From contig CAVZMI010000029.1 of assembly GCA_963776275.1 (NCBI GenBank), positions 23,123 through 87,122 of the forward strand: DNA of 64,000 nt. The letters are read 5' to 3'. The notes beneath the pieces were generated by a model. The model saw nothing but the letters and a program-made list of their open reading frames with translations, ran no database searches and was not told the origin of the DNA. A program made the translations under genes and the position numbers. Positions 8,500 through 42,958 of the stretch are shown piece by piece (the stretch's first letter is position 1; each line of letters begins with the position of its first letter). The DNA is from Ignavibacteriota bacterium (GTDB lineage: Bacteria; Bacteroidota; Ignavibacteria; UBA10030; CAVZMI01).

Positions 8500-8512
8500 A
8501 TCCTAATCCTTA

Positions 8513-10624: not shown

Positions 10625-10740
10625 CTCACACCTCGTCTCAACAATAGTTAAAAAAATAAACTGAAAAATTAGAAACAGGCGACTTCTCCTCCCCCACAAC
10701 CAACTCTCTAAAAGAAACCGCCTGTTCCAGCACTGATGAT

Positions 10741-11229: not shown

Positions 11230-11248
11230 CTTTCTCTACTTATTGGGT

Positions 11249-11680
11249 TTATGCTGATGGTTGAGGGAATTTTCCGCTGTCTACAATTATGCGGACAATA
11301 TCTTCCTTCTTCTTAATCTTGGGTGGAAGTACGATATCGAGACTTGTCGCGAGCTGTTTGAGTTCATCGACTTCCTTGCTCCCCAATTCTGATATCTGCC
11401 GCTGTTTGATTTCTTCTGCGGTGATATCGGTCGTCTGTGGGATATCATCAGGTTCACCATGTTCCTGAGTTAAATTGGTGTCTATCGTACCACCTTCGAT
11501 GCCCGTCGGCGCCACTATTTCACCCTTCGCCACGACTTCAGTATAACCTTTCACCCTGAGTAATTTCTCGGCCATTTTGTCGCTAACTTCGGCATTTCCC
11601 AGTGCATCGAACGTCACCGGTCCAAGCGATGTTCTGGTTGTCGATTTTTTCTGAAAACTGCAATGTATGATGCGTCCCAT
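11249..11680 (-). CDS. hypothetical head-associated protein with a Rho-N/SAP-like C-terminal motif
   Basis: 143 aa, immediately downstream of the capsid gene. Contains ELKQLATSLDIVLPPKIKKKEDIVRII. Confidence 0.4.
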   Translation of the reverse strand: MGRIIHCSFQKKSTTRTSLGPVTFDALGNAEVSDKMAEKLLRVKGYTEVVAKGEIVAPTGIEGGTIDTNLTQEHGEPDDIPQTTDITAEEIKQRQISELGSKEVDELKQLATSLDIVLPPKIKKKEDIVRIIVDSGKFPQPSA

Positions 11681-11768
11681 GTTCTATCCTTTCATTAAAA
11701 AGGGGTGAATGGGATTCCTTATCACCCACTCACCCCTCTCCCAATTAAGAAAAGTTTATTTGTTATGG

Positions 11769-13283: not shown

Positions 13284-13355
13284 AACTACTCCCCTGACTT
13301 ATGTGATAGAAAAAGTTAATTCGTCTCCACCCGCCCCTCGCGGGATATGAAATAC

Positions 13356-14852
13356 TTAGCTCGTTGTGAGGTGTGCTACCAGCTCATCCTGAATCGATTT
13401 CGATAACGCAACGATCCCCCTCTCCCGCATCATTGTCTGTGCAGCGAAATATTCGCGGCTCTTTTGTATATCTTTCTCCGCAGCACCACGATCCACCAAA
13501 TAATTCTCAACCCGGATCGATGACAATGATTTCAGAAGCGCAATACCTTTCGGTGCACCATCATCGGTGTCCGCGCCTTCTGTATTCACCGAGCCTTTGT
13601 CAATGAGGCTGATCCCAGCCTGGCTCTTTTTCAAGCCGACTTCAACCCGCGCTACCTGCTCATTGGTTGCATCAATCCCTTCTTCGAGCGTCGATACGCG
13701 GATATCTATACTCTTGAGAATATTCGTAATCTCCGAGAGCCCCACGGCAATCGAGCCGATTGATTTCGCAAGTTCCATCTGTCCTTCCCGGACCATAGCT
13801 GCCACCGATGATGTGACCTTACCCACTATGCCGATGAACTTCGCGGCATCGATCTCTTTGCTCTCGTCCATTATCGCGATCGATTTCTTGATCTCGGCAT
13901 CGGCCGACGCCACTTCGACCGAACGTTGTTCCAGGTTCGTCACGAAAATCGTGAGACCATCAACCGATTTTTTAAAATTCTCGATGGCCGCTCCCAGACT
14001 CTTCTCGACGGCCGTGTTGCAATCGGCACGTGCCTGGGACTTTTCTGCGAAATGCTCTTCCACTGCCTTCAGAGCATCGGCATGATTCTTCCCTTGCTTA
14101 CGGAAGGCTTCATATGCTTCTTGGCGTGAACTAAATTTTCCCATTTTAGATTTCTCCCCTGACTTTGAATGTTTATTTGAATTTGCACCTTCTAAACTTT
14201 CTTTTCGAAGAGCCCCACCCCCTGTTTGTGAATCCGGATTAGTTCCGTACCCGGCTTCCATCGATTTCACGAGAGCCAAATTCGATTTTTGCGCTTGCTC
14301 CATATATGTGGTTACTTCCTGCGGATTCGGTGTTACGACAACATTGATGACCTTACCCGCATAATCCCCATTTTTTAATCTCTTTGTATATTTTCCCTCA
14401 ATGGAAAAACCAATGGTGCGTTGATTGTTTGGGAATTTTGTATTGTGCTCTCGGAGGGCTTTGATCAACTTGACAACTTTCTGGGCATTGTCCATCTGCG
14501 GGAAGAGAGCCCCAATAAGATGCTCTTCACTGTCATTGATGCGATAACGTTTTAAAGGAGCTCCGATGATATTGTCGGGATCCGGACGAACGACGGTCGT
14601 TACTGTTCCGGATTTTGTAATCGTAGTCTCGATCGGATCATGTTCATATTTCACAAAACCATTCTTGTCAAAATAGGACCAGTCCATTTCTGGGATGATG
14701 GGTCTTTCACCCGATACATCTCTCACACGATTGAGCATCCGACCTTTGATGATATAATCATCATCCGGTACATGAATGCCCAGCTCTGACTTTTGCAGAG
14801 GCATATCGAAATCGAAAAATGCAGCTATTTTGAAGCTGTCACCTATTTTCAT
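13356..14852 (-). CDS. prohead protease fused to a scaffold-like coiled-coil region
   Basis: 498 aa. The N-terminal roughly 190 aa carry HK97-type prohead protease-like motifs (VKYEHDP, TIGFSIEG). The C-terminal half is A/E/K-rich and helical. Sits upstream of the capsid gene. Confidence 0.55.
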   Translation of the reverse strand: MKIGDSFKIAAFFDFDMPLQKSELGIHVPDDDYIIKGRMLNRVRDVSGERPIIPEMDWSYFDKNGFVKYEHDPIETTITKSGTVTTVVRPDPDNIIGAPLKRYRINDSEEHLIGALFPQMDNAQKVVKLIKALREHNTKFPNNQRTIGFSIEGKYTKRLKNGDYAGKVINVVVTPNPQEVTTYMEQAQKSNLALVKSMEAGYGTNPDSQTGGGALRKESLEGANSNKHSKSGEKSKMGKFSSRQEAYEAFRKQGKNHADALKAVEEHFAEKSQARADCNTAVEKSLGAAIENFKKSVDGLTIFVTNLEQRSVEVASADAEIKKSIAIMDESKEIDAAKFIGIVGKVTSSVAAMVREGQMELAKSIGSIAVGLSEITNILKSIDIRVSTLEEGIDATNEQVARVEVGLKKSQAGISLIDKGSVNTEGADTDDGAPKGIALLKSLSSIRVENYLVDRGAAEKDIQKSREYFAAQTMMRERGIVALSKSIQDELVAHLTTS

Positions 14853-14906
14853 CCGAAAATCTGCTCCATTTATGAAATTGTGTAATCGAAATGTATTTAT
14901 TTGTCC

Positions 14907-14929
14907 GGTAATTATTACCGCGATAATGG
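14907..14929 (-). promoter_or_regulatory. conserved palindromic motif, copy A (GGTAATTATTACCGCGATAATGG on the plus strand)
   Basis: Matches 3355-3377 at 22 of 23 positions. Lies 55-77 nt upstream of the protease-scaffold ATG and overlaps the stop of the HTH gene. Confidence 0.45.
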
Positions 14930-15241
14930 CTTTTTTGAAGATATCACTCTTCGGGGATGATGATCGTAATAATGCTTGATATCATTGGCGATGGTCTTCG
15001 TCGATACTCCCAGACGGTGTGCTATCTCATTCTGATTCTCACCGTTGAAGAGTTCTTGAACCACACGCCGGCGATGATGGAGGATATATGGCCTGAAACA
15101 AACTACTCCTTTCCGAATGTTAAGAACCTTCGAGAGTCTTACTAAGAAATGGTATCTTTTCTCTGGATCGGTGATTATTGTACTAATCACTTCTTCGACA
15201 CTCTCGCACGATTCCAGCGTATCATCGGAGTACTTCGGCAT
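14915..15241 (-). CDS. small HTH DNA-binding protein (sigma-70 region-4/LuxR-like helix-turn-helix)
   Basis: 108 aa. Contains ENQNEIAHRLGVSTKTIANDIKHY. Sits immediately upstream of the head protease gene and of motif copy A. Confidence 0.5.
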   Translation of the reverse strand: MPKYSDDTLESCESVEEVISTIITDPEKRYHFLVRLSKVLNIRKGVVCFRPYILHHRRRVVQELFNGENQNEIAHRLGVSTKTIANDIKHYYDHHPRRVISSKKPLSR

Positions 15242-15253
15242 ATCTTCCTTTCA

Positions 15254-15304
15254 AGAAATAAAAATACCTCGCCGCGAATATCTGTTCTATTATTCGCAAC
15301 GAGG
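15254..15304 (-). terminator. putative intrinsic terminator
   Basis: On the minus strand: CCTCG-ttg-CGAATA, a 10-nt loop, TATTCG-cgg-CGAGG, then TATTTTTATTTCTT. Lies after the 141-aa ORF. Confidence 0.45.
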
Positions 15305-15396
15305 TTCACTCGTTGACTCCGTTGAAGCTGTTCAGTATTTGATTACTATTGGATCAATCCATTCTTATCCATTCTGTTGATTGCTGTTGACTTTTT

Positions 15397-15822
15397 TCAA
15401 TCGAGATATCCGATACCTGGGATATATAATCGATCTTCTCCCTTTTCATCCTGTATCTGGTGCGGATTATCGGCACCAAGCCCATATTCATTTGATCGTA
15501 TATCTAAATACATTTGTGCCGCTGCCCAATTCAAAAGATCTGTCCCATAATCATAACGCTTCTTTATTTCTTCATCAGCTCCGAACACATCTTCCCCACC
15601 GCACATATCGACATATTCACGATATGGACGTGGTGCGTGTACTTTAAGTACTGATGCCAAATTCCACCAATAAGGACCGTAATTTTTCCAGAAATCGGGT
15701 AACTGTTTTTTAAGAGTCTCGATCAGTTTCGGTGTAACACGCTGTAAAAATCCTGATTCCGTATCATTCTTCAATACTTCCAGGGCCTCTTCCTCTACAA
15801 CTTGTTTTTCGAACATGCTCAC
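15397..15822 (-). CDS. hypothetical protein
   Basis: 141-aa ORF downstream of the SNF2 gene. No motif recognised. Confidence 0.45.
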   Translation of the reverse strand: MSMFEKQVVEEEALEVLKNDTESGFLQRVTPKLIETLKKQLPDFWKNYGPYWWNLASVLKVHAPRPYREYVDMCGGEDVFGADEEIKKRYDYGTDLLNWAAAQMYLDIRSNEYGLGADNPHQIQDEKGEDRLYIPGIGYLD

Positions 15823-15841
15823 CTCAATGTTATTTCAATTG

Positions 15842-18800
15842 TCATTCCTGGTCTTCTGTATTCTCTTCTTCTGGAACTTCTTCTTCCGTTGATGGCCATT
15901 GCCACCCGAATACCTCGTTCGCAAAATTAACTTCTTTTGGCATGGGTGGTTTATAATGACGATTTCTCCCTGCCCATATCTTTCTATATTCTGTCCGCTC
16001 TTTCTGAGCAATGTCCAAAATATCCTTCATCCATCGCCTAATATCTAATGGCCAATAAATATCATCCTTCGAGTATGTCGGTGGAAGATTTTCTGTTTGC
16101 CCTGTTCTACGATTATACTCCTCTTTTGGTTCAAAATCACTCCTTGCAGCAATTTTTACTCCTCCGGTTTTATGATCAATGACCGGTATGTCATCAACAT
16201 CATTTTCTTCAAGTATTTTGAATATATTTTCTTTCTTATTCGTGATCGTATCAGGTTGAAGTAATCTAACCTGCCTCCAATTTTTTATGCTGTCGTAAAG
16301 CTTCCTCTCAACTTCATCACTATGCACCGCTGGAGTTGATATCCCACTCTTGAAGAATGATTTGAATTCATTAAAACCAACATTGCTTATCTCTCCGGGT
16401 GATGGATTGGCATGATCGTATTCTCTTTGCTCGCCCTCAATAATTTTTTCTATTTTCACACGCCGATTGACCGGATCAACAGAAACGAATCGATATAATC
16501 CATGCTTCTCCCAATTACCTCCGTTTCGAGTAAAATATCTACCTACTGGTACTACAATTCGCCGATCGGCGTCGACATATGCCGGTTCATCCGATTCCAG
16601 AAGGCCTTTATATTCAAATTGCTCATTGTTCTGTAGTAGTTGTCTTGTATAGGTTATACGTTCCTGTAGCTGCTTGCCGAGTTCATCAGACTTTTCTTCC
16701 GGCTTCATCTTTTTATACTGGATCAAGAGATTCTGATATTGATTGAATGCAGACAATCCTCTCTTTTGCATTTCCTCTCGGTTCTTCTCAATCTGTGTTT
16801 TATTCTCTGCATCTACTTTTAGGCGCTCGGCTTCGGGATCATCGGAAAGCATCACCTGTAGTTCCTGCGGTGAAAAGCTTCTTCCGGAATTCTCATTCTT
16901 CGCTTCATCTGCTGTACCATTCCACAGATCCCATTGCCAGCCTTTCTTTCGATTGATCGCGTCAAAGAAAAATCCGTCAAATGTCCCATGTGTCATATAA
17001 TAATTTATATCGACCATTTCCCTCTTGTTCCCTTGCCGAACTCCTCGACCGTTGCGCTGTTCGATCGCTGCCGGCGTCCATGGTAAGGTAAGATGATTAA
17101 CGGCGCTTGTTTCTACCTGGAAATTCATACCTTCGGCCATTGTACTGTTGCCAATAACAACTTTGTATTTTCCACTGTTGTATTCTTCCGACATATGCTG
17201 TCTGTTCGATGAACTCCCGGCGGTATCAGCGTTGATTATGAGGATATCTTTCTCTGGAATACCGGCCTTAATTAATTCATTTTTGAGTTCTTTTTGTATC
17301 GCCTTAAATTCCGCAAATATCAATTGCTTTTCACCCGTCTTATAAATTCTTAAAGTATCTTCCACGCTTTCTTTCATCTTCGGACTTACACCCTCTTCTT
17401 CTACCTCTTTGCTGGTCAATTCTGGACGGTGTTCGCTTCCTTCCTCCATCAACAGTTTAATAGAAATTGCTGCCTTCTGCATATCTGAGAGAATCGAAAA
17501 AATATGATCACCACTTTCCTTCCGTTCTTCTTCGGTCATTGCCAACAACTCTCGAGCACGTTCTCTAAGATCATTATATACTCTTTTTTGTAATGTTGTC
17601 ATGTTGCTTGTGTTAAAATGCGGATCCGGTTGAGGGACCTTCAATCCTACATCCTGAGCTCGGCGCATGTCGGTATATCGCATGAAGATTGTTCGTAATT
17701 CTGGTAAGGCTTTGAAACCGGTCAAAGCTGGCCGCGGTTTTATCTCTCCACTGATATCTGCAATATCCAGAGTCTCTACATTACCGAAAGTATCGAAGAA
17801 GTCTTGCATGTTAAAAATATTTCGGCGATCGTATTCTTCAGGAGCAATATATTGAAGCATGTTATATGCTTCCAATGGATTATTCACTGTCGGTGTTGCC
17901 GTCAAGAAAAATACATTCTTTCCATTATTCTTTTCTCGAATGAACTGCGACGCAACATACATTCGCATCGATCGCTGTACGTCCGGCTGTGTCATTGCCC
18001 ATTTAATCGGCCGCCCGACAAGGCCAAAAAGATTCCGATAACTATGAGCTTCATCGGCGAACAACGCATCCACACCCAACTGGTCAAAATATATGGTTTC
18101 TACTTTCTCGTGGCCGGCTTTTACTCGACCCATGATTGCCCGTTCTATATTAGCTTTGGCGACTTCCACATCCCGGGCTGTGGCTTCCGCATTTGAACGT
18201 ATGATGTGTCGATGCACTACATCGTCCAGAGTCCGTTGCAATATCTCCGGACTGAATGACATCATGTCAAATTTATCCCGAGTAATCAGAACAATATCAT
18301 AATCATTCTGAGCGACCTGTTGTAATTTTCGTTGAACTTCCTCAAATGTATCTTCATTCCATTGGATTTTGCCTTTTACATCAAGTTGTAATGTTTCATT
18401 TTTATCCTTTTTCTCATGCATCCCTATGATCATGATCTTCCGTTTTTTATTTCCGGAAAAGACATTGATCTCACTCACCCAATTCGCCAGGACGCTTTTC
18501 GGTACTACGATCATCGGTTTCTTCGCTATTCCCCTTTCCTTCAAAAGATAGGCCGTGGCAATCGCGGCAAAAGTCTTGCCCAATCCGGTCCCATAAGCCA
18601 GGATGCCTCGTCCCACATCAAGCATTCTCCGGATAGCTGAATAATGGTATCGATTCAATGAAAATCCATCGTCCATTTTATCGATCGGGATGGGAGTATC
18701 GTCATACTCCTCTTTCACATAGTTGTTAAACTTTCGATTATAGGTATTCTCGAACTCTTGCCTTTTCGGATGAACTGCTAACCAGCTCCGGAAACGTTCT

Positions 18801-19309
18801 TTGAATTCTTCGATCGCTTCCTCACGGTCTTTATTCTGGACTCCGTGCTCCAATCCTAAATTATTGAGATGCCGGATTAAATCACCGTAGAAATTGTATT
18901 CACTTGGAACAGTGCCTTTCGAATGAGTTAGATCTACTTCGTAAATGTTCGTCGTTTCATCATACAATAAGGGTTTATTCCCCCGACTGATCATAAACTC
19001 ATTCAGTACTTCAAGGGGGATCCATCGCGAACGGAGATTGAGCGGCATCTCCTCAATCGTCCGGAATTTTACCTTTGATTGCATTGTTGTTATTTGATTT
19101 TCGAGTTTCTGAATTTTGAGTTCATTCTCTCGATCGTCACCTCCCATCAATCGACCTATTTCATTTTTCCATCGGTCGATTTTATCATACACCGTTCCGG
19201 AAAGCAGCCTTTCCATTGGCATGTCGTAATATAGCGGGATCAACAGCTCTTTTCGATCTTTCAGATCTATTATGTGCTCGCATGAGTGCGGTATCATAAT
19301 CTGCGTCAA
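15842..19309 (-). CDS. large SNF2-family helicase (polyvalent-protein-type)
   Basis: 1155 aa. Motif I GTGLGKTFAAIATAY, motif II FADEAHSYRN, then LTATPTVNNPLE, and a helicase-C region ending QRNGRGVRQGN. The true start is uncertain: in-frame ATGs at 19222, 19216 and 19147 would shrink the 125-nt overlap with the upstream ORF. Confidence 0.85.
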   Translation of the reverse strand: MTQIMIPHSCEHIIDLKDRKELLIPLYYDMPMERLLSGTVYDKIDRWKNEIGRLMGGDDRENELKIQKLENQITTMQSKVKFRTIEEMPLNLRSRWIPLEVLNEFMISRGNKPLLYDETTNIYEVDLTHSKGTVPSEYNFYGDLIRHLNNLGLEHGVQNKDREEAIEEFKERFRSWLAVHPKRQEFENTYNRKFNNYVKEEYDDTPIPIDKMDDGFSLNRYHYSAIRRMLDVGRGILAYGTGLGKTFAAIATAYLLKERGIAKKPMIVVPKSVLANWVSEINVFSGNKKRKIMIIGMHEKKDKNETLQLDVKGKIQWNEDTFEEVQRKLQQVAQNDYDIVLITRDKFDMMSFSPEILQRTLDDVVHRHIIRSNAEATARDVEVAKANIERAIMGRVKAGHEKVETIYFDQLGVDALFADEAHSYRNLFGLVGRPIKWAMTQPDVQRSMRMYVASQFIREKNNGKNVFFLTATPTVNNPLEAYNMLQYIAPEEYDRRNIFNMQDFFDTFGNVETLDIADISGEIKPRPALTGFKALPELRTIFMRYTDMRRAQDVGLKVPQPDPHFNTSNMTTLQKRVYNDLRERARELLAMTEEERKESGDHIFSILSDMQKAAISIKLLMEEGSEHRPELTSKEVEEEGVSPKMKESVEDTLRIYKTGEKQLIFAEFKAIQKELKNELIKAGIPEKDILIINADTAGSSSNRQHMSEEYNSGKYKVVIGNSTMAEGMNFQVETSAVNHLTLPWTPAAIEQRNGRGVRQGNKREMVDINYYMTHGTFDGFFFDAINRKKGWQWDLWNGTADEAKNENSGRSFSPQELQVMLSDDPEAERLKVDAENKTQIEKNREEMQKRGLSAFNQYQNLLIQYKKMKPEEKSDELGKQLQERITYTRQLLQNNEQFEYKGLLESDEPAYVDADRRIVVPVGRYFTRNGGNWEKHGLYRFVSVDPVNRRVKIEKIIEGEQREYDHANPSPGEISNVGFNEFKSFFKSGISTPAVHSDEVERKLYDSIKNWRQVRLLQPDTITNKKENIFKILEENDVDDIPVIDHKTGGVKIAARSDFEPKEEYNRRTGQTENLPPTYSKDDIYWPLDIRRWMKDILDIAQKERTEYRKIWAGRNRHYKPPMPKEVNFANEVFGWQWPSTEEEVPEEENTEDQE

Positions 19310-20234
19310 CCAGTACCAATCTTACTTTATATCCATTCTGTTTCAATTCATGATATAATTTTTCAGCCTTCCCGGGATTCGATAGCGCTCCATCGATCAC
19401 CACATTCTGTTTATTTTTTATTGCTTCTGAAATGAGCTGCTTACTCATATGCGAACTTTCTTCATGGGCAATACTGGCCGCTTCATAATCATCGGCTGCA
19501 CGGAGAATTTGGTATTCTGGTATAAATTCCTTTGCCTCATCGGCATCGACCCATACATGAGATCGATTCGATTTCAAATCACCGTACAATGTTCTAAGGA
19601 TCGTACTCTTTCCGGTCCCGCCTCCACCTGCCAGAACGATCGCCTCACGCTTTCCTTCAGGCAAATCTTTCGGCACCTCTGCTGTTTGTATATTGAGAAA
19701 TGCTGAATGTAGTTCGCTTCGTTCTGGTTCCCATTGTCCATCATGGAAATATCGCCGCTCAGTGCTTATATCCTTAACCTGCGATAGAAACTCCTCATCG
19801 AGATCCTCCGGCGTAATAGTCTCAAAATCACGATAGATATATTGCTTTAATCGATCAACATATTTCCTATTCTCTTCTTCTTCCGGTACCGGAGCTTCGC
19901 TGGCCGACGTTCTGGATATCGCGAAATGTTTTCCAAGTCTCGATTTAACAGCCAACATATGATCGGCTATGTCTGTAACCTTTACCCTCAAACCACGATA
20001 TTTGACTTCATCACCAACCTTTATATCCTTCTGCCACTGTTCAAGCTTGTGGGATTGAAGCTCTTGTTTCTGAGACTGATGTTGGTCGGTCGGTTTTTGA
20101 TTTCCTTTCTTCTGTTTCTCATAATCGTCATCGTTCAACCAACGTCCCTGATCTGTGGAGAACCTGCGTCGATCAGTGGGGCCAAACATCCGGACCTCGC
20201 CTTCTGTCGGCTTTTCCACTGACTTCCTAAACAT
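19185..20234 (-). CDS. Zeta-toxin-like P-loop kinase with an N-terminal junction/SH3-like module
   Basis: 349 aa. P-loop LAGGGGTGKSTI followed by VDADEAKEFIPEY and a GYKVRLVLVDAD layout typical of Zeta-toxin/AAA_33 kinases. 8-nt overlap with the upstream 1261-aa ORF. Confidence 0.6.
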   Translation of the reverse strand: MFRKSVEKPTEGEVRMFGPTDRRRFSTDQGRWLNDDDYEKQKKGNQKPTDQHQSQKQELQSHKLEQWQKDIKVGDEVKYRGLRVKVTDIADHMLAVKSRLGKHFAISRTSASEAPVPEEEENRKYVDRLKQYIYRDFETITPEDLDEEFLSQVKDISTERRYFHDGQWEPERSELHSAFLNIQTAEVPKDLPEGKREAIVLAGGGGTGKSTILRTLYGDLKSNRSHVWVDADEAKEFIPEYQILRAADDYEAASIAHEESSHMSKQLISEAIKNKQNVVIDGALSNPGKAEKLYHELKQNGYKVRLVLVDADYDTALMRAHNRSERSKRAVDPAILRHANGKAAFRNGV

Positions 20235-23200
20235 AACGATCGCCTTTTTCCCGATCGCTCTTGAAAAACCGTATCAGTTGGCGTATGCTTTTTTTTAAGC
20301 CGCCCTTTTCATTCGCTAATTCAAAACCATACTGCCTTGCAATATTTTCCATTTTACGATATACATCAAACGCCCCGAATTGTTCTTTTGCCGATTCCTG
20401 CTCATCGGCTGTCAGCTGCTCCTCTCCGGACCGATAGGGCTTATTCTCAAGCAGAGTTCGTTCAGCGATTGCCACCACATCCTGATACTGTTCTGCCTTC
20501 TTCTGTTCTTCAGATTTGATTGATCCGAAAATATCATCCTGATTCTGATCAAGTGTTTTAAGCGCATCAGAGAATCGGCGTATTTTTAGTGCGAATTGGT
20601 TTATCGATTTATTCCGGTTTTCTTCATCAAACCGTGGATTCATTGCTTGATGATATGCTATCATGCCGACAACAGTTAACGGATCCCGGAAAAGGTTCTC
20701 TTCTTTCTTCTCTGTGGAAAGTAGATCTTCCTGCCTCATTCGATGGATGAGTGTGTCAGGATTCATCGCTTGAGGATCGTCATTTAAGAATTCCACGTTT
20801 CCGGCCCGGATATTCATCAATGATTTCGTCCCAGAACCGAGGTTGTCATAGGATTTTACCACACGGCCGAGGAAGGATTGAATATCCGCATATCCGGGGA
20901 CCCGGCCTTCCGCCACTGCTCGCTGATTGTCTGCCAGGACCGAAGCCAACTTTCGTACCAATCTATGTGTTTTGTCATCCCGACCAGCAATATCCTCAAT
21001 GAAGTCTTTCTTTAGTTGCGCCAGCATCGCGATATTGACAAGTCTTGCTTGTACCGATGGATGGCTCTCAACTGCTTCACGGGCTAATCCGGAATCCTTC
21101 AAAATCTCTTGATAGAGTTGTGGATTGTTTCTGACAAACGTTCCCACGTTATTTTCATCGATCGACCGGTTACCTATACCTTCAAGATTAATACGAAAAT
21201 CATATGGCGTGCGTTGTGCATTTTGGAATGCCCGGGCTTCCTCGACCTCGGTCTGCGGTAGAGCTGCACTCTTCTGACCAAATGCCGCAAGTCGACGTGC
21301 ATCTTCATACGTATGCATCGGCGTCAATATCCGAACCAGCATATCGTTTTCTGTTAGTTTTTCTGTCGGAGTACCAAGTTTCTTCGCCTTATCGAGTATC
21401 ATCCCGAAATACTTTTCACGCTGCACGCCTTGTGTACCTTTAATGCCGGCACTGCGGCCATTTCCTTGGATGATATAGACTTTCCCATCTCTGGAAAATG
21501 CCACTGGTGCACCGCGGGTAGCATCCGCATTGTCCGTTACCACGTCGTCGTTAATATCGGAAGCAATCTTTTGCATTTGAGTTACCGCGTGCACGTCACT
21601 CCTTTTTCTTGCCTGCAGTTCAACGGGATGCTCTGCGTTCTCTTGACCTTCGACATTATGAGATTCAACTACCGAATCCATAGGTACAAAAGCATATACC
21701 ACATGATAACTATTCCCACTGCTATCTCTAATCTTGAATGGCTCTTCGACCACAGCTTTTGCGTTCTCGGGAATTTCCGAGGTATCTCCCCATTCAAATT
21801 TACCTTTGGCCCCGCTTGTACGCGCTTCACCTATTTTTTCTCTGAGCTTTTCGCGTAAATAATCATTCCGGCGCTGACGGATGAAGCTCTCTGCTGTATC
21901 CATGTAATCGGATATCTGTCTGGCTGCTGGCTTTTCCTTCAGAACGCCGCTTTGCGATAGAGTATTGAAAGCATCGATCTCTCGCCCTCGCTGATCATCC
22001 GCTACTTTCATTCGCTCAGCCAAGGATTGTATGGTTGCTTTCCATTCCGGTCGACCATATGCTTCTGCGAGCTGTTCGTCAATCCCCTCTCCACTATTAT
22101 CTATGAAAGAATCGAAAACATCTTTATACATGCCAGCATCAATCGGCTTACGTCCTGTTTTTTCTTTTTCGATCCTGGCTTTCGCCGTATCGACGTCCAT
22201 ATTCCTGATCTGCTCTTCCCTTAGTTTTCCTGTAAGTCCGACGACCAACCTCTTCATTTTCTTTGAACCATCATCGAGCTTACTATCATCGACGTTACGG
22301 CGTGTATTCTTTTTTAGGATTATATTCGTTCTCCGGTTTCCATCTATTACACCGATTTCATGACCATGCTTATAAACCGTAATGCCAGTAGCAATTTTAC
22401 CGAGACGTATATCTGTATATCGGGCACCCACTGCCGGCTCCAATCTCTTCCATACTTCATCATTGATTATCCGGATGGTCCCGGGCTTCAAGAGATCTGC
22501 TTGAGTAATACCTTCTTCCATTCTGATGGCACCAAGTTCTTTCTCGCCCTTTTGTACCGTAGCATTTCCATCTTCATCCAGGATTAAGTTTCCCTGATAT
22601 TTATCGAGATCGTACTGATTGATTTTAACTTCATCATTTCCCTTCCTCAGGACAATATCATCGCCATCGATGTCAACCAACTCCTGTGTTTCGCCTTTGT
22701 ATATCAAATGAATAGGCCGGTCATTAGCCGAAACTGTATACGTCTTTTTCTCCGGAAGCCATGTTCGGTTTAAAGTATAATGAATCTTAAACCAACCTTC
22801 TTGTTCCCATTCAACATCCTTTTGAAAATTGAAATCGTCAAGCTGATTCCAGTCTTTGGAGAGATGCTCTTTGAATTCCTTATATTCCGGTGTTTCTATC
22901 TGTTCATTGTGTATCCGGGTCACTTCTTCCTGATATTTTTCCCCGACTGATTTTGGATGGGGTTCGAATTGCAATACTCTCTCCTGCTGCCGCTTTTTCT
23001 TTTCATCAAGAGCATTCTGTTGATAAATCTCCGTCATTTTTCCATGTTGTATATCTCCAGTTTCTTGTGAAATAGTTTTTTCCGATTGCTTCTTGGCTGC
23101 GACCTTACTTTCTGCGTCATGATTGTACTCGGTTGTCTTCAATGTACCTGTCGATCCATCTTCTTTTTTGAAAGCAACAATATCATCTGCATAATTTACA

Positions 23201-24012
23201 ACCTGCACCTTTTCACCCTTCCATGGTATTTCCTGTCCGACTCGAAATTCTCGAGCTGCAGGCTTTGGAGTTCCTTCGTTTTGAACTTTATCCGTCTTCT
23301 TTTGCTGACGGCGTTCAAGCTCTTTCTTTTCCTCGTCCGCGTTCATCCACCTCATCGCACCATCCGGAGTCCGCATGAGCTTACGAATATCATTCGGCCC
23401 AAATTGCTTCGTCGTGCCCTCGGTGGGTTGCGATTCCGGATTGAGGTTTAACTTAAATTTTCCAGCATTGAAACTGATACCGACCTTATTCGGTCTTTGG
23501 GTGATAGATCTCGGGGTATTGGTTTGAATACGCTTCCGAAGTTCTATAAAGAAATTACCTACTTCCTCGATGGCCCGGGTTTCCCGCTGATAATCAATTG
23601 CTGGCCGCAATAGACTCTTCCGGCATACCTTTCTCCCAGCACCGTTTTCAATTAAGGCCATTTGATCACCGCATTCGATCACCGTGCCCTCTGTTGTCTT
23701 CGCTCCCTTTTGTAACCAGCTTCCCGATATTTCCAGAATCTTTCCCTGTATATCACTCATGATAATACAATCATTCTCACTCTTGAAAAAGTAAACTTTT
23801 CCATGTTCGCGAGATGGAGCCGACCCCAGAAAATTATCTATAGTCTTATCCACAAGTAAATAAGGTTTCCCATTGATAACACCGACTTCATAACTCTTAA
23901 GTATCAATGGAATTGAATTCTCTATCGGCTCGATCAAGAGCTCAATCCCGCGTGATAGGGTATAACCTTGCACCGTCTCGGCAAAATATTTCTTTGTGTC
24001 ACTCTCCATCAT
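20227..24012 (-). CDS. 1261-aa polyvalent-type protein with a ParB-like (ddrB-ParB-type) nuclease domain
   Basis: The stretch HPVELQARKRSDVHAVTQMQKIASDI...ATRGAPVAFSRDGKVYIIQGNGRSAGIK fits the ELQPRDR...GNGR pattern of ParB/sulfiredoxin-fold domains found in polyvalent proteins. The rest is large and not recognised. Confidence 0.6.
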   Translation of the reverse strand: MMESDTKKYFAETVQGYTLSRGIELLIEPIENSIPLILKSYEVGVINGKPYLLVDKTIDNFLGSAPSREHGKVYFFKSENDCIIMSDIQGKILEISGSWLQKGAKTTEGTVIECGDQMALIENGAGRKVCRKSLLRPAIDYQRETRAIEEVGNFFIELRKRIQTNTPRSITQRPNKVGISFNAGKFKLNLNPESQPTEGTTKQFGPNDIRKLMRTPDGAMRWMNADEEKKELERRQQKKTDKVQNEGTPKPAAREFRVGQEIPWKGEKVQVVNYADDIVAFKKEDGSTGTLKTTEYNHDAESKVAAKKQSEKTISQETGDIQHGKMTEIYQQNALDEKKKRQQERVLQFEPHPKSVGEKYQEEVTRIHNEQIETPEYKEFKEHLSKDWNQLDDFNFQKDVEWEQEGWFKIHYTLNRTWLPEKKTYTVSANDRPIHLIYKGETQELVDIDGDDIVLRKGNDEVKINQYDLDKYQGNLILDEDGNATVQKGEKELGAIRMEEGITQADLLKPGTIRIINDEVWKRLEPAVGARYTDIRLGKIATGITVYKHGHEIGVIDGNRRTNIILKKNTRRNVDDSKLDDGSKKMKRLVVGLTGKLREEQIRNMDVDTAKARIEKEKTGRKPIDAGMYKDVFDSFIDNSGEGIDEQLAEAYGRPEWKATIQSLAERMKVADDQRGREIDAFNTLSQSGVLKEKPAARQISDYMDTAESFIRQRRNDYLREKLREKIGEARTSGAKGKFEWGDTSEIPENAKAVVEEPFKIRDSSGNSYHVVYAFVPMDSVVESHNVEGQENAEHPVELQARKRSDVHAVTQMQKIASDINDDVVTDNADATRGAPVAFSRDGKVYIIQGNGRSAGIKGTQGVQREKYFGMILDKAKKLGTPTEKLTENDMLVRILTPMHTYEDARRLAAFGQKSAALPQTEVEEARAFQNAQRTPYDFRINLEGIGNRSIDENNVGTFVRNNPQLYQEILKDSGLAREAVESHPSVQARLVNIAMLAQLKKDFIEDIAGRDDKTHRLVRKLASVLADNQRAVAEGRVPGYADIQSFLGRVVKSYDNLGSGTKSLMNIRAGNVEFLNDDPQAMNPDTLIHRMRQEDLLSTEKKEENLFRDPLTVVGMIAYHQAMNPRFDEENRNKSINQFALKIRRFSDALKTLDQNQDDIFGSIKSEEQKKAEQYQDVVAIAERTLLENKPYRSGEEQLTADEQESAKEQFGAFDVYRKMENIARQYGFELANEKGGLKKSIRQLIRFFKSDREKGDRYV

Positions 24013-24182
24013 ACCTTCTTCACCTCTCGCGGTTTCTTCTTGAGTATTGCATACCCGTAAATTGTTTTTTTATTTCTAATACGACAACACAGCCATCTCA
24101 CCTGTTGACTCTCCCGAACATCTACATATTGAAAAAACGAATCAATATCTTTTGGAGGATATATTCTTCGTGTATTGTCCAT
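24009..24182 (-). CDS. small coupled ORF (57 aa)
   Basis: Not in the track. MDNTRRIYPPKDIDSFFQYVDVRESQQVRWLCCRIRNKKTIYGYAILKKKPREVKKV. Its start shares TGATG with the upstream stop, and its stop shares ATGA with the 1261-aa ORF start. Confidence 0.35.
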   Translation of the reverse strand: MDNTRRIYPPKDIDSFFQYVDVRESQQVRWLCCRIRNKKTIYGYAILKKKPREVKKV

Positions 24183-24442
24183 CACCGCCTCATAAATCTC
24201 CTCAATTCTTCCTCTTGTCGTACCATTATTAACTGGAGGGAATCAACTTGTTCCGGTTTGATATCTACTTTACTTTCCAGCCCCTTCCCCGACAATATTC
24301 TATATTTTCCAGTAAGGCTGACAAACCTGTATACCACTTTTGGTTCTGCCGACAACTCCCGTAATTTATAACCGAAAACTACACCTATGGCGAATAAGAC
24401 AATCGCTGAGATTACGATCAGTAATCCCCGCTTTGTTGTCAT
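24182..24442 (-). CDS. small single-pass membrane protein
   Basis: Probable start is MTTKRGLLIVISAIVLFAIGVVFGY at 24442, which gives an ATGA overlap with the stop of the MuF C-terminal ORF. The track start at 24511 lies inside that ORF. Confidence 0.4.
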   Translation of the reverse strand: MTTKRGLLIVISAIVLFAIGVVFGYKLRELSAEPKVVYRFVSLTGKYRILSGKGLESKVDIKPEQVDSLQLIMVRQEEELRRFMRR

Positions 24443-24921
24443 AATTCTATACCGTGTTGTTTTAGCGCGGTGAGTTTTGTGATGATGTCGCTGTTGTACC
24501 ATTTCTCCCATGCTTTCTCGTCCATGGCCTTCATCCGGATGTTGCCGTTTTCAATATATTGATTCAGAGGATTCAGTCGAACATAACGACAACGGCAATT
24601 TTTCACTACTAATCCATCTACCAAATAAGAATGATCGTTGGCAACCTCTATGTTGTAAACAAGATTATTGTCTTCAAAACATTTGTTTTCTACTATCCTG
24701 AGAAGCTTATATTTACACTTTGGATTGAAATTGACCTTTTTCATTACGGAGTTTTTCCCCTTTCTCTGAAGCATGCTCATCATCATGGCATTCGCGGCAT
24801 AGTACTTCCAAATTGTCCATCTCATTATTATGTCGATCCCTATCTTTATGATGGACATGTAAACTAAATACTGAGCCACAACGTTCACATTCCTTTTTCT
24901 TTCCATAAATGCCAAAAGCAT
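24439..24921 (-). CDS. C-terminal Hint block of the intein plus the MuF C-extein (second reading frame of a split gene)
   Basis: YNIEVANDHSYLVDGLVVKN followed by CRCRYV is an intein C-terminal block followed by the MuF CRC motif. It lies in the +1 frame relative to 24713-26584. The track N-terminus upstream of about 24760 is probably not translated in this frame. Confidence 0.55.
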   Translation of the reverse strand: MLLAFMERKRNVNVVAQYLVYMSIIKIGIDIIMRWTIWKYYAANAMMMSMLQRKGKNSVMKKVNFNPKCKYKLLRIVENKCFEDNNLVYNIEVANDHSYLVDGLVVKNCRCRYVRLNPLNQYIENGNIRMKAMDEKAWEKWYNSDIITKLTALKQHGIEL

Positions 24922-25621
24922 ATTTCCGGTATGATTTACGTCCGTCTTTAAATCTCGGTGCCTGAATTTTCACCTTCCCATAATTAGGATTCAAAGAGCC
25001 TATTTTTGAATCTGATATTTTTTTAATCGAAGGATTAGAACCTTTATTTTTACCGCTATTCCACGAAGGCTTGCCTTTTAACCATTGACCCCAAGAACCA
25101 TCCTGCACCTTCTTTTTGATAGCGAGATGTGCTTTTTCAATTATTCGTTTTCTTTCTTCGGGATCTTTGTATCTCTCGTAGAGTGCTTCACTTTTATTTC
25201 TCCATTTCAAGCCGTAATTATTCATCCATCGTCTCACTGTGTCAGGACTCACGCCATATTGTTTTGACATTTGCAAAATTGACATGTGATGGATATTATG
25301 TTTCTCAGATAATTCTTCCGCGGTAGGTTTATATTTTGCTTCTAATTCAACAACCATATCGCCTGGAATAATTTCATCTATTTTCGCCCAATAAAATTTT
25401 TCATTCCGTTTTATTAATATTTCGTGTTTAGAGGTCGATTTTAATTCAATTCCATTATCCGTCGTGAGCCGATTAAACTTTCCAATATATTCACGCACAT
25501 TCTTTCCAATTACTTTTTGATGCTTTCCTCGATGCGTAAAAACTTCATCGCCCTCTTGGATATCTTTTATTTTCTTCCTCTCTCCATTTGATAGGCTAAT
25601 TATTGCATCTCCATAAAAACA
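24598..25621 (-). mobile_element. intein with an HNH homing-endonuclease domain, inserted in the MuF HPxCRC motif
   Basis: N-terminal Cys at 25619-25621 (IPLHPY/CFYGDAIISLSNG), TSKHEIL block B, HTH and NUMOD3-like repeats, HNH CERCG..HVHHKDRDRHNN..CRECHDDEH, and C-terminal ..LVVKN/C at 24598. The length is 1024 nt, which is 3n+1, so the intein is frame-broken. Confidence 0.7.
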
Positions 25622-26584
25622 ATATGGGTGAAGAGGTATGACAGGCATTGACAGTTCGTGATGTGCTCTTTGAACTAATCCCGGATTTCCGTTTTCATCG
25701 ATTACTTTTTTATACGGTGATGAACTCCGGCCAATATTGTCCTTCCCCGTCCACACGACGTTAGTCCATAGCCATGATCGCCGTTGATATTCCTTGCTCT
25801 CTGGATCAAAGTTGCCATAAGTCATATCCTCGGCAGGCTCTATCACTGGAAATATTTTGCCATCAATAAGCCGACTACATTGTGGACAGCAATTGATCAG
25901 AGACATTCCTATTACCCAATCACTGGGTGGTACCTGTGCCAGATATCCATTGTTGAAAGCAGCATTCGTTTCGGTGATCGCGACTCTCTTCCAATCCCTG
26001 TTCAGTTCGTGCTCATCATCAAAGAATTCTGTTTCCAATGCCCGTCGAAAATCCCGGACACTGCCACGATTCTTAAGATTATCATATAAGAGTTCTTGTA
26101 TCCTACTCACGGTCCGACCGGTAGCGTTTGTCAAATTCTTCGCACCGTTCGAAACGCTCCATTCCAAAGCTTTTGTCTCGCGGACTGTTAGTTTGTAATC
26201 TCTTGCTGCATCCCGAATTCGTGCTGGAAGTTTTTCTATATCGAGTATTTTTCGAGGCGGTACTGGCGGAAGAGTCTCACTCTTCTCAATCAATTTGCCG
26301 ATGATGAATCCCCTTACTAACCATGTCTCTATCTCCGGCATTTTCCCATAAAAATATTTCCGGATGAATGAATCGATATCCTGAAGATCTTGAAGTGTGG
26401 GTATCGCACCCTCCTTCAATCTTCCTGCCAGATATTTATTCAGCGATTCATAGAATTTCTCAATTTCGAAAGAAGAATGGAATTGCTTCTCAAGTATTCC
26501 TAATTCTTCAAGGTGTTGTATGCCTCCTGGCTGAGTTTGAAGCTTCTGGAATACATCTCTTGATATTTTAAGAGGTGCTGTCAT
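24713..26584 (-). CDS. MuF-like (SPP1 gp7 family) head morphogenesis protein N-extein plus intein N-terminal and HNH part
   Basis: 623 aa. MuF motif WKRVAITETNAAFNNGY. The extein ends at IPLHPY, followed by the intein. The ORF terminates at 24713, before the C-terminal Hint block. Confidence 0.7.
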   Translation of the reverse strand: MTAPLKISRDVFQKLQTQPGGIQHLEELGILEKQFHSSFEIEKFYESLNKYLAGRLKEGAIPTLQDLQDIDSFIRKYFYGKMPEIETWLVRGFIIGKLIEKSETLPPVPPRKILDIEKLPARIRDAARDYKLTVRETKALEWSVSNGAKNLTNATGRTVSRIQELLYDNLKNRGSVRDFRRALETEFFDDEHELNRDWKRVAITETNAAFNNGYLAQVPPSDWVIGMSLINCCPQCSRLIDGKIFPVIEPAEDMTYGNFDPESKEYQRRSWLWTNVVWTGKDNIGRSSSPYKKVIDENGNPGLVQRAHHELSMPVIPLHPYCFYGDAIISLSNGERKKIKDIQEGDEVFTHRGKHQKVIGKNVREYIGKFNRLTTDNGIELKSTSKHEILIKRNEKFYWAKIDEIIPGDMVVELEAKYKPTAEELSEKHNIHHMSILQMSKQYGVSPDTVRRWMNNYGLKWRNKSEALYERYKDPEERKRIIEKAHLAIKKKVQDGSWGQWLKGKPSWNSGKNKGSNPSIKKISDSKIGSLNPNYGKVKIQAPRFKDGRKSYRKYAFGIYGKKKECERCGSVFSLHVHHKDRDRHNNEMDNLEVLCRECHDDEHASEKGEKLRNEKGQFQSKV

Positions 26585-26934
26585 TCGACGGAACCATGAT
26601 TCTTGTCATTCCAATATTGCATCCATGCTTCAACCATCCGTTCCACCATTTCTTTTGGTAGGCCTGTTGAGTTTGTCACCCTATCGATCGCCTCGTCTTT
26701 GGTACCATTGATCGTCTGTGGTGCTATAGGTACATTGATACGGAAGGGTTGTCCAAAAACACAGCTGTTATAGACATTACCAGCTATGCCCCGCTGCCCG
26801 GATTTATGCATTTTGAGAATCTGCATTTCCTGCGAGAATATATCTTTCTTTTTCTGTCGATCCTGTGCGTGAATAGACTGCTCTGATTCGATGCCGAATA
26901 CGCTTTTGCCGAATGCTTCGATCTTCAATTTCAT
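26581..26934 (-). CDS. hypothetical protein
   Basis: 117-aa ORF with ATGA-type coupling on both sides. Confidence 0.45.
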   Translation of the reverse strand: MKLKIEAFGKSVFGIESEQSIHAQDRQKKKDIFSQEMQILKMHKSGQRGIAGNVYNSCVFGQPFRINVPIAPQTINGTKDEAIDRVTNSTGLPKEMVERMVEAWMQYWNDKNHGSVE

Positions 26935-27350
26935 AAACCTTCTCCTGTTATTTGTCCTTCAAAATTCTTCTTTATTTTTTGTGCTTCTATGAGTTGAATC
27001 CTCAAATATTTATTTACTTCTTCAAGATCGAGTTCTACTGCCAGCTGATTCTTCAGTTCCTGCAGGTATTGCCATCGCTCCGGGTGTTCTTTTCTGACCC
27101 ATACTTGGTACTCTATCTCCGTCATGCTTGATAAGTGTTTGTACTTATGACAACAGATGCACAAACATATTCCGTTCAGTAAGTTCCATCGTAGTCTCAG
27201 ATTCCCCCGGGTGACAATGTGATCTGCTTCAAAATCCTTTTCCTCTCCTTCTTGACCGCAGCGTTCACAAACGCACGGTGCGCGAATGATTCTCCGCCAT
27301 AGATCGTCGTTCGATTCATGAAGCTTATCACGATCGTACTCCGTCGTCAC
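26931..27350 (-). CDS. HNH endonuclease (NinG-like)
   Basis: 139 aa. CERCGQEG..FEADHIVTRGNLRLRWNLLNGICLCICCHKYKH. Confidence 0.65.
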   Translation of the reverse strand: MTTEYDRDKLHESNDDLWRRIIRAPCVCERCGQEGEEKDFEADHIVTRGNLRLRWNLLNGICLCICCHKYKHLSSMTEIEYQVWVRKEHPERWQYLQELKNQLAVELDLEEVNKYLRIQLIEAQKIKKNFEGQITGEGL

Positions 27351-27904
27351 TTACTCAATCCTCTGTAAATCAATGTGGCTGCCACAACACCAGCACCAAA
27401 CCAAATTTCTTTCTTCTCATACCAGGGTATCTCCTGCAGCAATGGTATGATCTCTTTGATTTGGACCTGCTTCAATCGTATTTCACAGCTATCTCGCGTA
27501 TGCATCATTAACTTCGTGATAGGATCGGCTTTTATACTCCAATGTGTGATGATCCTGGCACCTTCGGTCTCCGCCGTATCGATGTAATGCTCTTCAAATG
27601 GCTGAGCCAGATCTCGGATAATCATTTTTAGACTGTCAAGGTTATCTTTAAGGCTACCGGCTGCCGTCATCAAACTATCTATCCTTGCCTGCTCTACTTT
27701 TGTCGCTTTTACCGGTTGTGCTTTCTTAGTTTCGGACTTCGGTGGAAGCTGAATCGGTGGCAAATTTATTCTCAGAGTATCCATCTGATGTGGTAACATA
27801 GCAATACGATTTCGCTCATGACTTACACCTGTAAAAAACCCTCCACCAAATAATAATGCGATTATTATTATTGCCAACAAAAACCATTTAATCGTGTCCT
27901 TCAT
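27347..27904 (-). CDS. membrane protein with N- and C-terminal transmembrane segments
   Basis: 185 aa. WFLLAIIIIALLFGGGFFTG near the N-terminus and IWFGAGVVAATLIY near the C-terminus. A lysis or spanin-like role is possible but unsupported. Confidence 0.45.
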   Translation of the reverse strand: MKDTIKWFLLAIIIIALLFGGGFFTGVSHERNRIAMLPHQMDTLRINLPPIQLPPKSETKKAQPVKATKVEQARIDSLMTAAGSLKDNLDSLKMIIRDLAQPFEEHYIDTAETEGARIITHWSIKADPITKLMMHTRDSCEIRLKQVQIKEIIPLLQEIPWYEKKEIWFGAGVVAATLIYRGLSK

Positions 27905-42957: not shown

Positions 42958-42958
42958 T

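Follow-up and report, generated by a model that had tools for sequence, protein, structure and literature searches.

A probable cargo slot for anti-defence proteins in the head operon of an uncultured tailed phage

Phage P1 carries the proteins Ulx, DarB and DdrB in its head, where they have been identified by liquid chromatography with tandem mass spectrometry; they leave the head together with the DNA and are required for protection from type I restriction by EcoB and EcoK (PMC9024508, PMC12810830). Packaging has also been proposed for polyvalent proteins and for solo polyvalent domains encoded beside late genes, and such solo domains next to late genes have already been described (Iyer et al. 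2017, PMC5512222). A separate class of arrangements is formed by fractured genes, in which a free-standing endonuclease gene is overlapped at its 3' end, over 6-69 base pairs, by the open reading frame (ORF) for the C-terminal part of an intein (IntC), and HNH enzymes have been predicted to be able to fracture genes likewise (Dassa et al. 2009, PMC2677866). The present analysis concerns a 64,000-nucleotide (nt) stretch of contig CAVZMI010000029.1 from an Ignavibacteriota bacterium (assembly GCA_963776275.1), here called the window, and specifically a block of genes at 15842-26584 in the head operon of a phage, where counterparts of these systems lie side by side.

By analogy with P1, and with rather more confidence than doubt, this block is interpreted as a cargo slot for late-expressed, virion-delivered anti-defence proteins, holding a ddrB-ParB core with a Zeta arm and a DarB-helicase/Ulx pair. 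Four items would make up the slot: a MuF-like portal-proximal protein; a polyvalent core of 1261 amino acids (aa) with a DdrB-type ParB domain; an interchangeable effector arm, a Zeta-type kinase, cut off from the core by a 2-nt deletion, whose translation probably restarts at an ATG overlapping the new stop codon; and the DarB-helicase/Ulx pair, which would have been acquired horizontally. Most likely, the slot proteins would be loaded into the procapsid, ejected with the DNA and blunt host defences. Virion packaging, ejection and anti-restriction activity are deduced from P1 biology and the published polyvalent-protein hypothesis, and the expression of the separated Zeta ORF is also a deduction. 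Directly visible in the DNA are the gene order, the domain identities, the orthology to fused giant proteins, the lesion that breaks the frame, the borders of the slot and the homology to DarB, Ulx and DdrB.

All genes of the window lie on the minus strand, and inspection of the ORFs finds the block tightly coupled. Between 30132 and 11769, the portal gene (28369-30132; PHROG portal, E = 5e-21) is followed in order by small genes, the MuF-like gene, genes of 86, 57, 1261 and 349 aa, the SNF2 gene, a 141-aa gene, a gene for a 108-aa helix-turn-helix (HTH) protein, prohead protease (13356-14852) and major capsid protein (11769-13283). The original prediction, made from the bare sequence, had described a coupled run with portal and MuF on one side and protease and capsid on the other; the ORFs, their overlaps (ATGA, TGATG, ATGA and 8 nt) and the flanks are all found at these coordinates. 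The genes it placed in the block at 15842-26584 are likewise present, but the cluster extends one gene further, to an Ulx-like gene at 15397-15822. Profile searches uphold its ParB-like, Zeta-toxin-like and SNF2 assignments. The link that it drew to polyvalent proteins of the kind described by Aravind and colleagues is now a strong one; full-length relatives of the core join a ddrB-ParB domain with InPase, RadC, ART-PolyVal or 2H/LigT domains.

The polyvalent core and its separated kinase arm

The 1261-aa protein (20227-24012), whose gene is coupled to the preceding one through ATGA, carries a ddrB-ParB domain at aa 765-895 (21328-21720; Pfam E = 4.3e-16), and aa 37-155 of P1 DdrB align to it by tblastn (E = 2e-11). 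A word-indexed search of 5.8 billion protein clusters returned only three relatives, namely P0001 (1578 aa, 84% identity), P0002 (1346 aa, 84%) and P0003 (2020 aa, 46%). When 1.84 billion representatives were searched exhaustively by HMMER with the first 760 aa of the core, 24 matches were obtained, of which 11 were long (1346-2541 aa), nine of these 11 aligning from the N-terminus, and the others were fragments or matched the motif described below only. Ten relatives, nine from the HMMER list together with P0001, were scanned with Pfam. The ddrB-ParB domain was found in all ten, at about aa 720-930 in nine, and the C-terminal effectors differ among those nine, comprising InPase, RadC-JAB, ART-PolyVal and 2H/LigT (Acb1-like) domains; P0042 is the exception, with InPase N-terminal to the ParB domain. 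Two to five recognised domains are present in eight of the ten, P0001 has ddrB-ParB only, and the second domain of P0002 is truncated. As encoded in the window, the 1261-aa ORF has one domain recognised by Pfam, and the Zeta domain lies on a separate ORF. The roughly 900 aa of the protein to which no name can be given, where the original prediction suspected novel effector domains, are conserved within this small family but match no profile. Judged by these alignments, the 1261-aa ORF is the conserved core of a rare giant-protein family.

A second feature of the family is a 36-aa motif, EGxx[KR]xFGPxDxRxL...GxxRWxNxDE, with an SH3-like segment after it. Its first copy in the window lies in the core at aa 196-231 (23320-23427) and its second at aa 9-42 of the Zeta ORF (20109-20210), that is, at the boundary between core and effector. 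Nearly all giants with a complete N-terminus have one copy near aa 170-390, and several of them have another at the core/effector boundary (P0001 aa 1266, P0003 aa 1262, P0038 aa 1806). The motif also stands at the N-terminus of small stand-alone proteins (P0054-P0056) and matches no Pfam or PHROG model. It could be a docking or processing tag.

The effector arm is a separate 349-aa ORF (19185-20234) with a Zeta-toxin-type P-loop kinase at aa 193-336 (19227-19658; Pfam Zeta_toxin, E = 2.7e-33). Its Walker A motif reads GGGGTGKS, and a re-alignment of homologues found the kinase residues that are invariant among them all kept. The original prediction had regarded core and kinase as domains split into separate coupled genes. 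DNA and three-frame alignments with the related loci L001, L002 and L003 revise this: the ORF is continuous in all three, and the boundary in the window is a 2-nt deletion at 20243-20252 (GATCGGG[AT]AAAAAGG against L001 and L002). The deletion ends the core frame at ...DRYV and a stop codon and shifts the remainder to the +1 frame, at a place where the L001 ORF reads SDRDKKAIVMFRKSVEKPTEGE unbroken. An internal Met that was already present (IVMFRKS in L001) now overlaps the new stop (ATGTTTAG), and the two ORFs share 8 nt. In addition, the single 1578-aa L001 protein matches aa 1-113 of the Zeta ORF with 87% identity over its residues 1258-1363. Because of the 2-nt loss and this homology to the L001 giant, the two apparent genes are assigned to one frameshifted ORF, and on these alignments their separation is recent.

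An assembly or sequencing error, with a real product of one ~1610-aa protein like the relatives, would explain the same break and is given little chance. The lesion does lie beside a run of five A (GGG^AAAAAGG), and the relatives, at 84% identity, are in frame there. However, the loss is of 2 nt (AT) and does not change the length of the homopolymer, and every other orthologous gene pair over ~20 kb is colinear and full-length; for these two reasons the deletion is judged to be probably real. The other frame break of the block, in the intein of the MuF-like gene, moreover recurs in an independent assembly.

If the deletion is real, the polyvalent gene may be decaying, with a loss of function in which the Zeta ORF is neither made nor packaged and only the core and the DarB/Ulx pair work. 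Such decay, which is considered unlikely, would fit the unbroken ORF of L001, L002 and L003 and the full length of the relatives (1346-2541 aa). It would also fit the C-terminus of the Zeta domain, which has likewise been shortened, by the junction with the DarB cassette, so that the Pfam match reaches position 159 of 199; and the L002 ORF is broken in a different way, by an HNH gene, so breakage recurs in the group. Against decay stand the 349 open codons of the Zeta frame with its Walker A motif and invariant kinase residues, and the ATG overlapping the new stop, which is a classic layout for translational coupling. Moreover, the Zeta ORF starts with the same 36-aa motif that begins stand-alone small proteins.

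The break in L002 deserves a description of its own. There, an opposite-strand HNH gene (12554-13078) interrupts the InPase domain of the polyvalent ORF, with ORFs 8500-12540 and 13153-15981 on either side. The upstream ORF stops at position 56 of 135 in the InPase profile, and the downstream ORF restarts at position 54. By this layout, the L002 break is a homing-endonuclease-fractured gene without an intein. Giant polyvalent ORFs thus appear to have been broken repeatedly, in the window through the loss of 2 nt and in L002 through an HNH gene, which bears on whether packaging needs fusion and suggests that fusion is not obligatory.

The DarB-like helicase, the Ulx-like gene and the exchange slot

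The gene after the Zeta ORF encodes a DarB-like SWI2/SNF2 helicase of 1126 aa (15842-19222, from ATG 19222). Pfam identifies SNF2-rel_dom (E = 4.9e-22) and Helicase_C (E = 8e-10), helicase motifs I (GTGLGKT) and II (DEAH box) are intact, and the PHROG matches include PHROG 11801 (E = 3e-161) and a PHROG named 'DarB-like antirestriction' (E = 6e-78). By tblastn, the protein aligns with aa 817-1806 of gp027 of Bordetella phage PHB04 (E = 2e-142, 32.5% identity over 1046 aligned positions) and with aa 617-1267 and 1461-1600 of P1 DarB (E = 3e-55). The N-terminal 616 aa of P1 DarB and the N-terminal 816 aa of the PHB04 protein have no tblastn match anywhere in the window, so that the methyltransferase half is absent; tblastn for a methyltransferase or for the cargo genes of the relatives also found none in the window. 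The original prediction had given the protein 1155 aa, counted from TTG 19309. Its DarB homology starts at ATG 19222/19216, which corresponds to 1126/1124 aa and to an overlap of 32-38 nt with the Zeta ORF, and for that reason this start is treated as a genuine gene start. A third frameshift at the Zeta/SNF2 junction was considered and rejected, as the DarB homology begins exactly at these codons. The gene was also considered as a defence system, a candidate that was set aside because PADLOC and NCBIfam give generic SNF2 similarity only.

Directly after the helicase gene lies the gene for a 141-aa Ulx-like protein (15397-15822), which matches PHROG 1629, 'Ulx-like anti-restriction', with E = 1.3e-8 and P1 Ulx by tblastn with E = 0.009. 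The order darB then ulx is identical in the window, P1 and PHB04. By homology and order, the SNF2 gene and the 141-aa gene form a DarB-helicase/Ulx cassette of a type previously found in P1 and in the PHB04 head module. Together with the core, they align as the counterparts of P1 DdrB, DarB and Ulx, the three proteins needed against EcoB and EcoK. Homologues of DdrB, DarB and Ulx thus stand side by side in a very distant phage for which tblastn finds no DarA or Hdf in the window, and the DarB branch may accordingly travel as a portable unit.

The place of these genes in the operon is defined by comparison with L001-L003, which keep portal, HNH gene, a 117-aa gene, MuF, in part the membrane-type gene, the 57-aa gene, the giant, variable genes, HTH gene, protease and capsid. 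Gene content differs from the window only between the core and the HTH gene. Specifically, blastn similarity stops at 19896 (L001) or 20206 (L002) and resumes at 15390 in both, leaving a lineage-specific cargo segment at 15391-19895 that holds the Zeta kinase domain, the DarB-like helicase and the Ulx-like gene. In the same slot, L001 has a 629-aa DUF6582 protein and L002 has InPase/LPD1 and DUF6582 proteins. The protease-side border is the conserved 108-aa HTH protein (14915-15241; Pfam HTH_28, E = 7e-5), which is 88-89% identical in L001 and L002. The head operon thus offers a slot with a fixed left border, the ~1250-aa ddrB-ParB core, and a fixed right border, the HTH gene, in which putative anti-defence effectors would be exchanged: Zeta kinase, DarB helicase/Ulx, InPase, RadC, ART, 2H/Acb1-like and DUF6582 proteins. 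Such slots would be good mining sites for new counter-defence enzymes.

The same genes might act unpackaged in the producing cell, in DNA transactions, in host shut-off or lysis timing by Zeta, or as a defence or exclusion module. ParB, SNF2 and Zeta domains do serve in partition, defence (ZorD, DrmD) and toxin-antitoxin systems, to which partial matches are seen. However, the defence-helicase matches are generic (E of 1e-23, over part of the protein) compared with values of the order of 1e-161 and 1e-78 for DarB-type PHROGs, and the ParB domain belongs specifically to the DdrB clade. No epsilon-type antitoxin turned up either: no neighbouring ORF matched an antitoxin family (epsilon/PezA) in general Pfam, PHROG and NCBIfam scans, which included no dedicated search. 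In addition, the slot between MuF-like gene and protease is kept in L001-L003 while its content swaps among polyvalent-type effectors. Action in the producing cell is accordingly given the smallest chance of the explanations considered here.

Several points nevertheless weigh against a cargo slot for delivered anti-defence proteins. The phage is uncultured, and packaging is predicted here from its genes. Homologues of the P1 loading machinery (DarA, Hdf and DdrA) gave no tblastn match with E < 0.1 in the window, a search of limited sensitivity. The DarB-like protein lacks both the DarB N-terminus, which bears the capsid-targeting signal in P1, and the methyltransferase half. No HExxH motif occurs in the 1261-aa protein, compared with HELGH at residue 872 of P1 DdrB, and some 1100 aa of the core show no fold that can be recognised. 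Pfam, PHROG and NCBIfam gave noise only for aa 1-770 and 890-1261 of the giant, for the N- and C-termini of the SNF2 protein and for the N-terminus of the Zeta ORF, and a PDB sequence search of the unnamed regions found nothing. AlphaFold2 models of aa 1-760 and 740-1261, built on four-sequence alignments, had mean predicted local distance difference test scores of 46 and 41, too low to use. Compared with free Zeta kinases, the Zeta ORF is missing about 60 C-terminal aa, and it may be a dead remnant. Finally, the identity of the MuF-like protein is plausible but weak.

The MuF-like gene, its out-of-frame intein and neighbouring genes

The MuF-like gene (24439-26584) lies downstream of the portal gene with small genes between, a layout kept in L001 and L002. 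Its first ORF, of 623 aa (24713-26584), joins an N-extein, the N-terminal part of an intein (IntN), an HTH and an HNH domain. The N-extein (aa 1-321; 25622-26584) ends in ...IPLHPY and is 88% and 84% identical over 322 aa (query 1-322) to aa 1-321 of the intein-free 372-aa orthologues of L001 and L002; DNA similarity with L001 ends at 25619. The N-extein is followed by IntN, fused in frame to the HTH and HNH homing endonuclease (302 aa and a stop; 24713-25621) with no stop codon between. On this ORF, Pfam reports Hint (E = 1.5e-7, above the cutoff), Intein_splicing (E = 8e-7) and HNH (E = 5.5e-5), with Hint/Intein_splicing at aa 321-464, then HTH, then HNH at aa 566-605. The remainder of the gene is in the +1 frame. 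The 49-aa IntC (24598-24744; MKKVNFNP...LVVKN) starts at an ATG located 32 nt ahead of the HNH stop codon and leads into a 52-aa C-extein and stop (24439-24597; CRCRYVRL...GIEL) that is 88% identical to aa 321-372 of the L002 orthologue. This second ORF ends at 24439 and reads ...VYNIEVANDHSYLVDGLVVKN directly followed by CRCRYVRL.

The residues for splicing are all present, namely Cys1 in CFYGD, block B TSKHE, the C-terminal Asn and the +1 Cys (LVVKN/CRC); the penultimate residue is Lys, not the usual His, in both known copies of the intein. When IntN (98 aa) and IntC are joined, they match Pfam Intein_splicing over positions 1-155 of 155 (E = 7.5e-8). The 372-aa orthologues of L001 and L002 read ...HPYCRC... 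unbroken, and the insertion point HPY/CRC is the most conserved motif of the protein. The insertion itself (25621-24598, with blastn breakpoints at 25619-25621 and 24598-24599) is 1024 nt long, or 3n+1, and so is not in frame: the HNH frame stops at 24713, with IntC and C-extein in +1, and L003 shows the same. The L003 protein, P0017, is the sole other copy of the intein among the 5.8 billion clusters (50% identity) and has the same layout, with a stop in the HNH frame and a +1 ORF from a conserved Met (MQKVNFNP) that overlaps it by 38 nt (1069-1106), compared with 32 nt in the window. Since this layout recurs in the independent L003 assembly, the intein frame break is not a sequencing error. 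For further copies, a metagenome scan with AAAAGGTCAATTTCAAYCC gave 19 matches, all due to chance and none an intein, and a viral-contig scan returned L002 only.

Two ORFs of this kind may be joined after translation. The chances are judged about even that the mature 373-aa protein arises by trans-splicing of a 623-aa N-extein-IntN-HNH product and a 101-aa IntC-C-extein product. With slightly less assurance, the arrangement may be called a half-fractured gene, that is, a natural split intein whose N-half keeps its HNH domain in frame, and a living intermediate on the path from contiguous inteins to fractured genes and split inteins. If this is true, it would be the HNH case foreseen but not seen by Dassa et al. 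2009 (PMC2677866), and, since the gene encodes a virion structural protein, the phage would need trans-splicing to assemble its head. If truly split, the intein would represent an intermediate step in the natural evolution of split inteins and might be a source of a new orthogonal split intein.

Programmed frameshifting would offer another way across this junction and across the ParB/Zeta break. Both could be decoded by a +1 shift on GAA-AAA-GGN, with the lysine transfer RNA slipping from AAA to AAG; the MuF precursor would then splice in cis, and the polyvalent gene would yield core-only protein alongside core-Zeta fusions. A +1 shift is required at each junction, and each has an in-register GAA-AAA-GG (20243-20250 and 24735-24742); the long ORFs of the 64-kb window contain only three such in-register sites. 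At the L003 intein junction the sequence is GCA-AAA-GGT, and an island of ~25 nt there shows 77% DNA identity between window and L003 against a background of 54%. However, the pattern was spotted after the fact and may be coincidence, no slow or stop codon occupies the A-site, no properly spaced stimulator is present, and the ParB/Zeta site arose from the deletion itself. The conserved ATG and the 32-38-nt overlap in the intein fit the published fractured-gene layout equally well, and only two intein sequences exist. Frameshifting at the two breaks is given a slim chance, and for the MuF-like gene trans-splicing of a split intein is preferred.

For the name of the host protein, the original prediction of a MuF-like gene stands in part. 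Its position downstream of the portal gene agrees with it, and the profile matches are weak; the intein and the frame break had been overlooked, and no match to Pfam Phage_Mu_F (PF04233) is found at E <= 1. TIGR01641 (phageSPP1_gp7) gives E = 3e-3 for the window and 9e-4 for L001, at 18-20 bits, below its cutoff of 39.65. The conceptually spliced 373-aa product matches PHROG 1657, 'head morphogenesis', across the junction (E = 1.9e-4) and PHROG 2468 (E = 8e-3), and the 'head morphogenesis' matches appear on the spliced sequence only. An hhalign comparison of the MuF alignment with a MuF-Zeta protein that contains Phage_Mu_F was negative.

Between the MuF-like gene and the core lie two small coupled genes. 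The first encodes an 86-aa single-pass membrane-type protein (24182-24442), whose ATG overlaps the upstream TGA (ATGA) and whose hydrophobic helix is LLIVISAIVLFAIGVVFGY. It is 79% identical to an 85-aa ORF of L002, no homologous ORF was called in L001, and it has no family match in Pfam, PHROG or NCBIfam. The second, a 57-aa ORF (24009-24182), is coupled on both sides, through TGATG to the 86-aa gene and through ATGA to the 1261-aa gene; it shares 64-68% identity with the 57-aa ORFs found ahead of the giant gene in L001 and L002 and also lacks a family match. On the portal side, a free-standing 139-aa HNH gene (26931-27350) stands between the portal and MuF-like genes. Because its place and sequence (88-91% aa identity) are conserved in L001 and L002, a fixed role, for example one associated with packaging, is suggested rather than mobility. 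A second, small variable slot lies at 27355-27899, between the portal gene and this HNH gene, where the 185-aa ORF of the window is unrelated to the 248-aa ORF of L001 and L002 and the flanks have 76-83% DNA identity.

The element that hosts the block is an uncultured tailed phage whose capsid protein is distantly like those of SPO1 and Bacteroides phages; the best matches, at ~28% identity, come from Chryseobacterium, Bacteroides and SPO1-like Bacillus phages. The source contig is 93,354 base pairs long. A megablast search of 50,697 phage records with 15300-27000 found no match and hence no close cultured relative among them. A scan for promoters and terminators gave signals not above shuffled expectation, and ARAGORN found no transfer RNA or transfer-messenger RNA genes in the window (1-64000). 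The protease (aa 186-221; 14190-14297) and the capsid protein (aa 34-69; 13077-13184) have in common a 36-aa segment, EAGYGT.PD.QTGGGALR.ESLE, at ~64-67% identity, which may be a shared propeptide or cleavage module. Elsewhere in the window, a group at 39431-44734 brings together a second ParB-like gene (40101-40982), a HerA/terminase-like ATPase (40955-42715) and a second SNF2-type helicase (42959-44734; PHROG 62, E = 3e-113), which is separate from the head-module cargo.

Comparison with known systems

The closest described system is the DarB branch of the P1 Dar system. Shared with it are the DdrB-type ParB domain, the DarB superfamily 2/SNF2 helicase module and an Ulx-like gene directly after it, and both arrangements adjoin the portal gene, in the order portal, darB, ulx in P1. 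The differences are equally specific. P1 DarB has an N6A-methyltransferase half and an N-terminal targeting signal, and P1 DdrB has a C-terminal HExxH metallopeptidase, all of which the window proteins lack; homologues of DarA, Hdf and DdrA were not found in the window. Conversely, the window has a Zeta kinase arm, and its ParB domain lies at aa 765 of the 1261-aa core instead of at the N-terminus. Its genes are also contiguous in one operon, whereas those of P1 are spread over two.

Among cultured phages, the best match to the SNF2 protein is gp027 of Bordetella phage vB_BbrM_PHB04, a 2097-aa DarB-like protein annotated as 'DNA methyltransferase'. As in the window, gp027 is followed by the Ulx-like gp026, and the two lie between portal and protease/major head genes. 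Unlike the window protein, gp027 keeps its N-terminal methyltransferase region of ~815 aa, and PHB04 has no ddrB-ParB giant or Zeta gene there, with a second helicase of 1518 aa instead.

The polyvalent proteins of Iyer, Burroughs, Anand, de Souza and Aravind (2017, PMC5512222) share with the block the hub domains DdrB-ParB, SWI2/SNF2, Zeta-like kinase and MuF, the last being weak here, as well as the context of late and virion genes. The orthologues of the window core carry two to five domains (InPase, RadC, ART-PolyVal, 2H, LPD1), as polyvalent proteins do. In the window, by contrast, the ORF is cut, so that each polypeptide has at most one recognised domain, and the ~1250-aa core (except for ParB) and the 36-aa motif match no Pfam or PHROG model. 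A related comparison is offered by MuF-effector fusions such as P0010 (840 aa, Phage_Mu_F and Zeta_toxin); fusions of zeta-like kinases to MuF were noted in PMC5512222. These also pair a portal-associated MuF with a Zeta-type kinase in a phage setting. Here, however, MuF and Zeta are on different polypeptides with three genes between them, and the Zeta domain belongs to the ddrB-ParB core.

With the fractured genes of Dassa et al. 2009 (PMC2677866), the MuF-like gene has in common a phage setting and an intein broken at the position of its endonuclease. Its IntC-C-extein ORF has its own Met, and the stretch that it shares with the endonuclease ORF, bounded by ATG 24744 and the stop at 24713, measures 32 nt, within the published 6-69 base pairs. 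The endonuclease is of the HNH type here and of the GIY-YIG and Vsr-like types there, and it is fused in frame to IntN without a stop or the 27-51-nt spacer, so that only the 3' side is fractured. The host gene is a head protein rather than an enzyme of DNA metabolism, and trans-splicing is predicted here. Taken together, late operons with solo polyvalent domains and head modules with DarB-like cassettes have been described before; what this locus adds to them is a clearly bounded exchange slot, the repeated fracturing of a giant ORF and a putative half-fractured intein.

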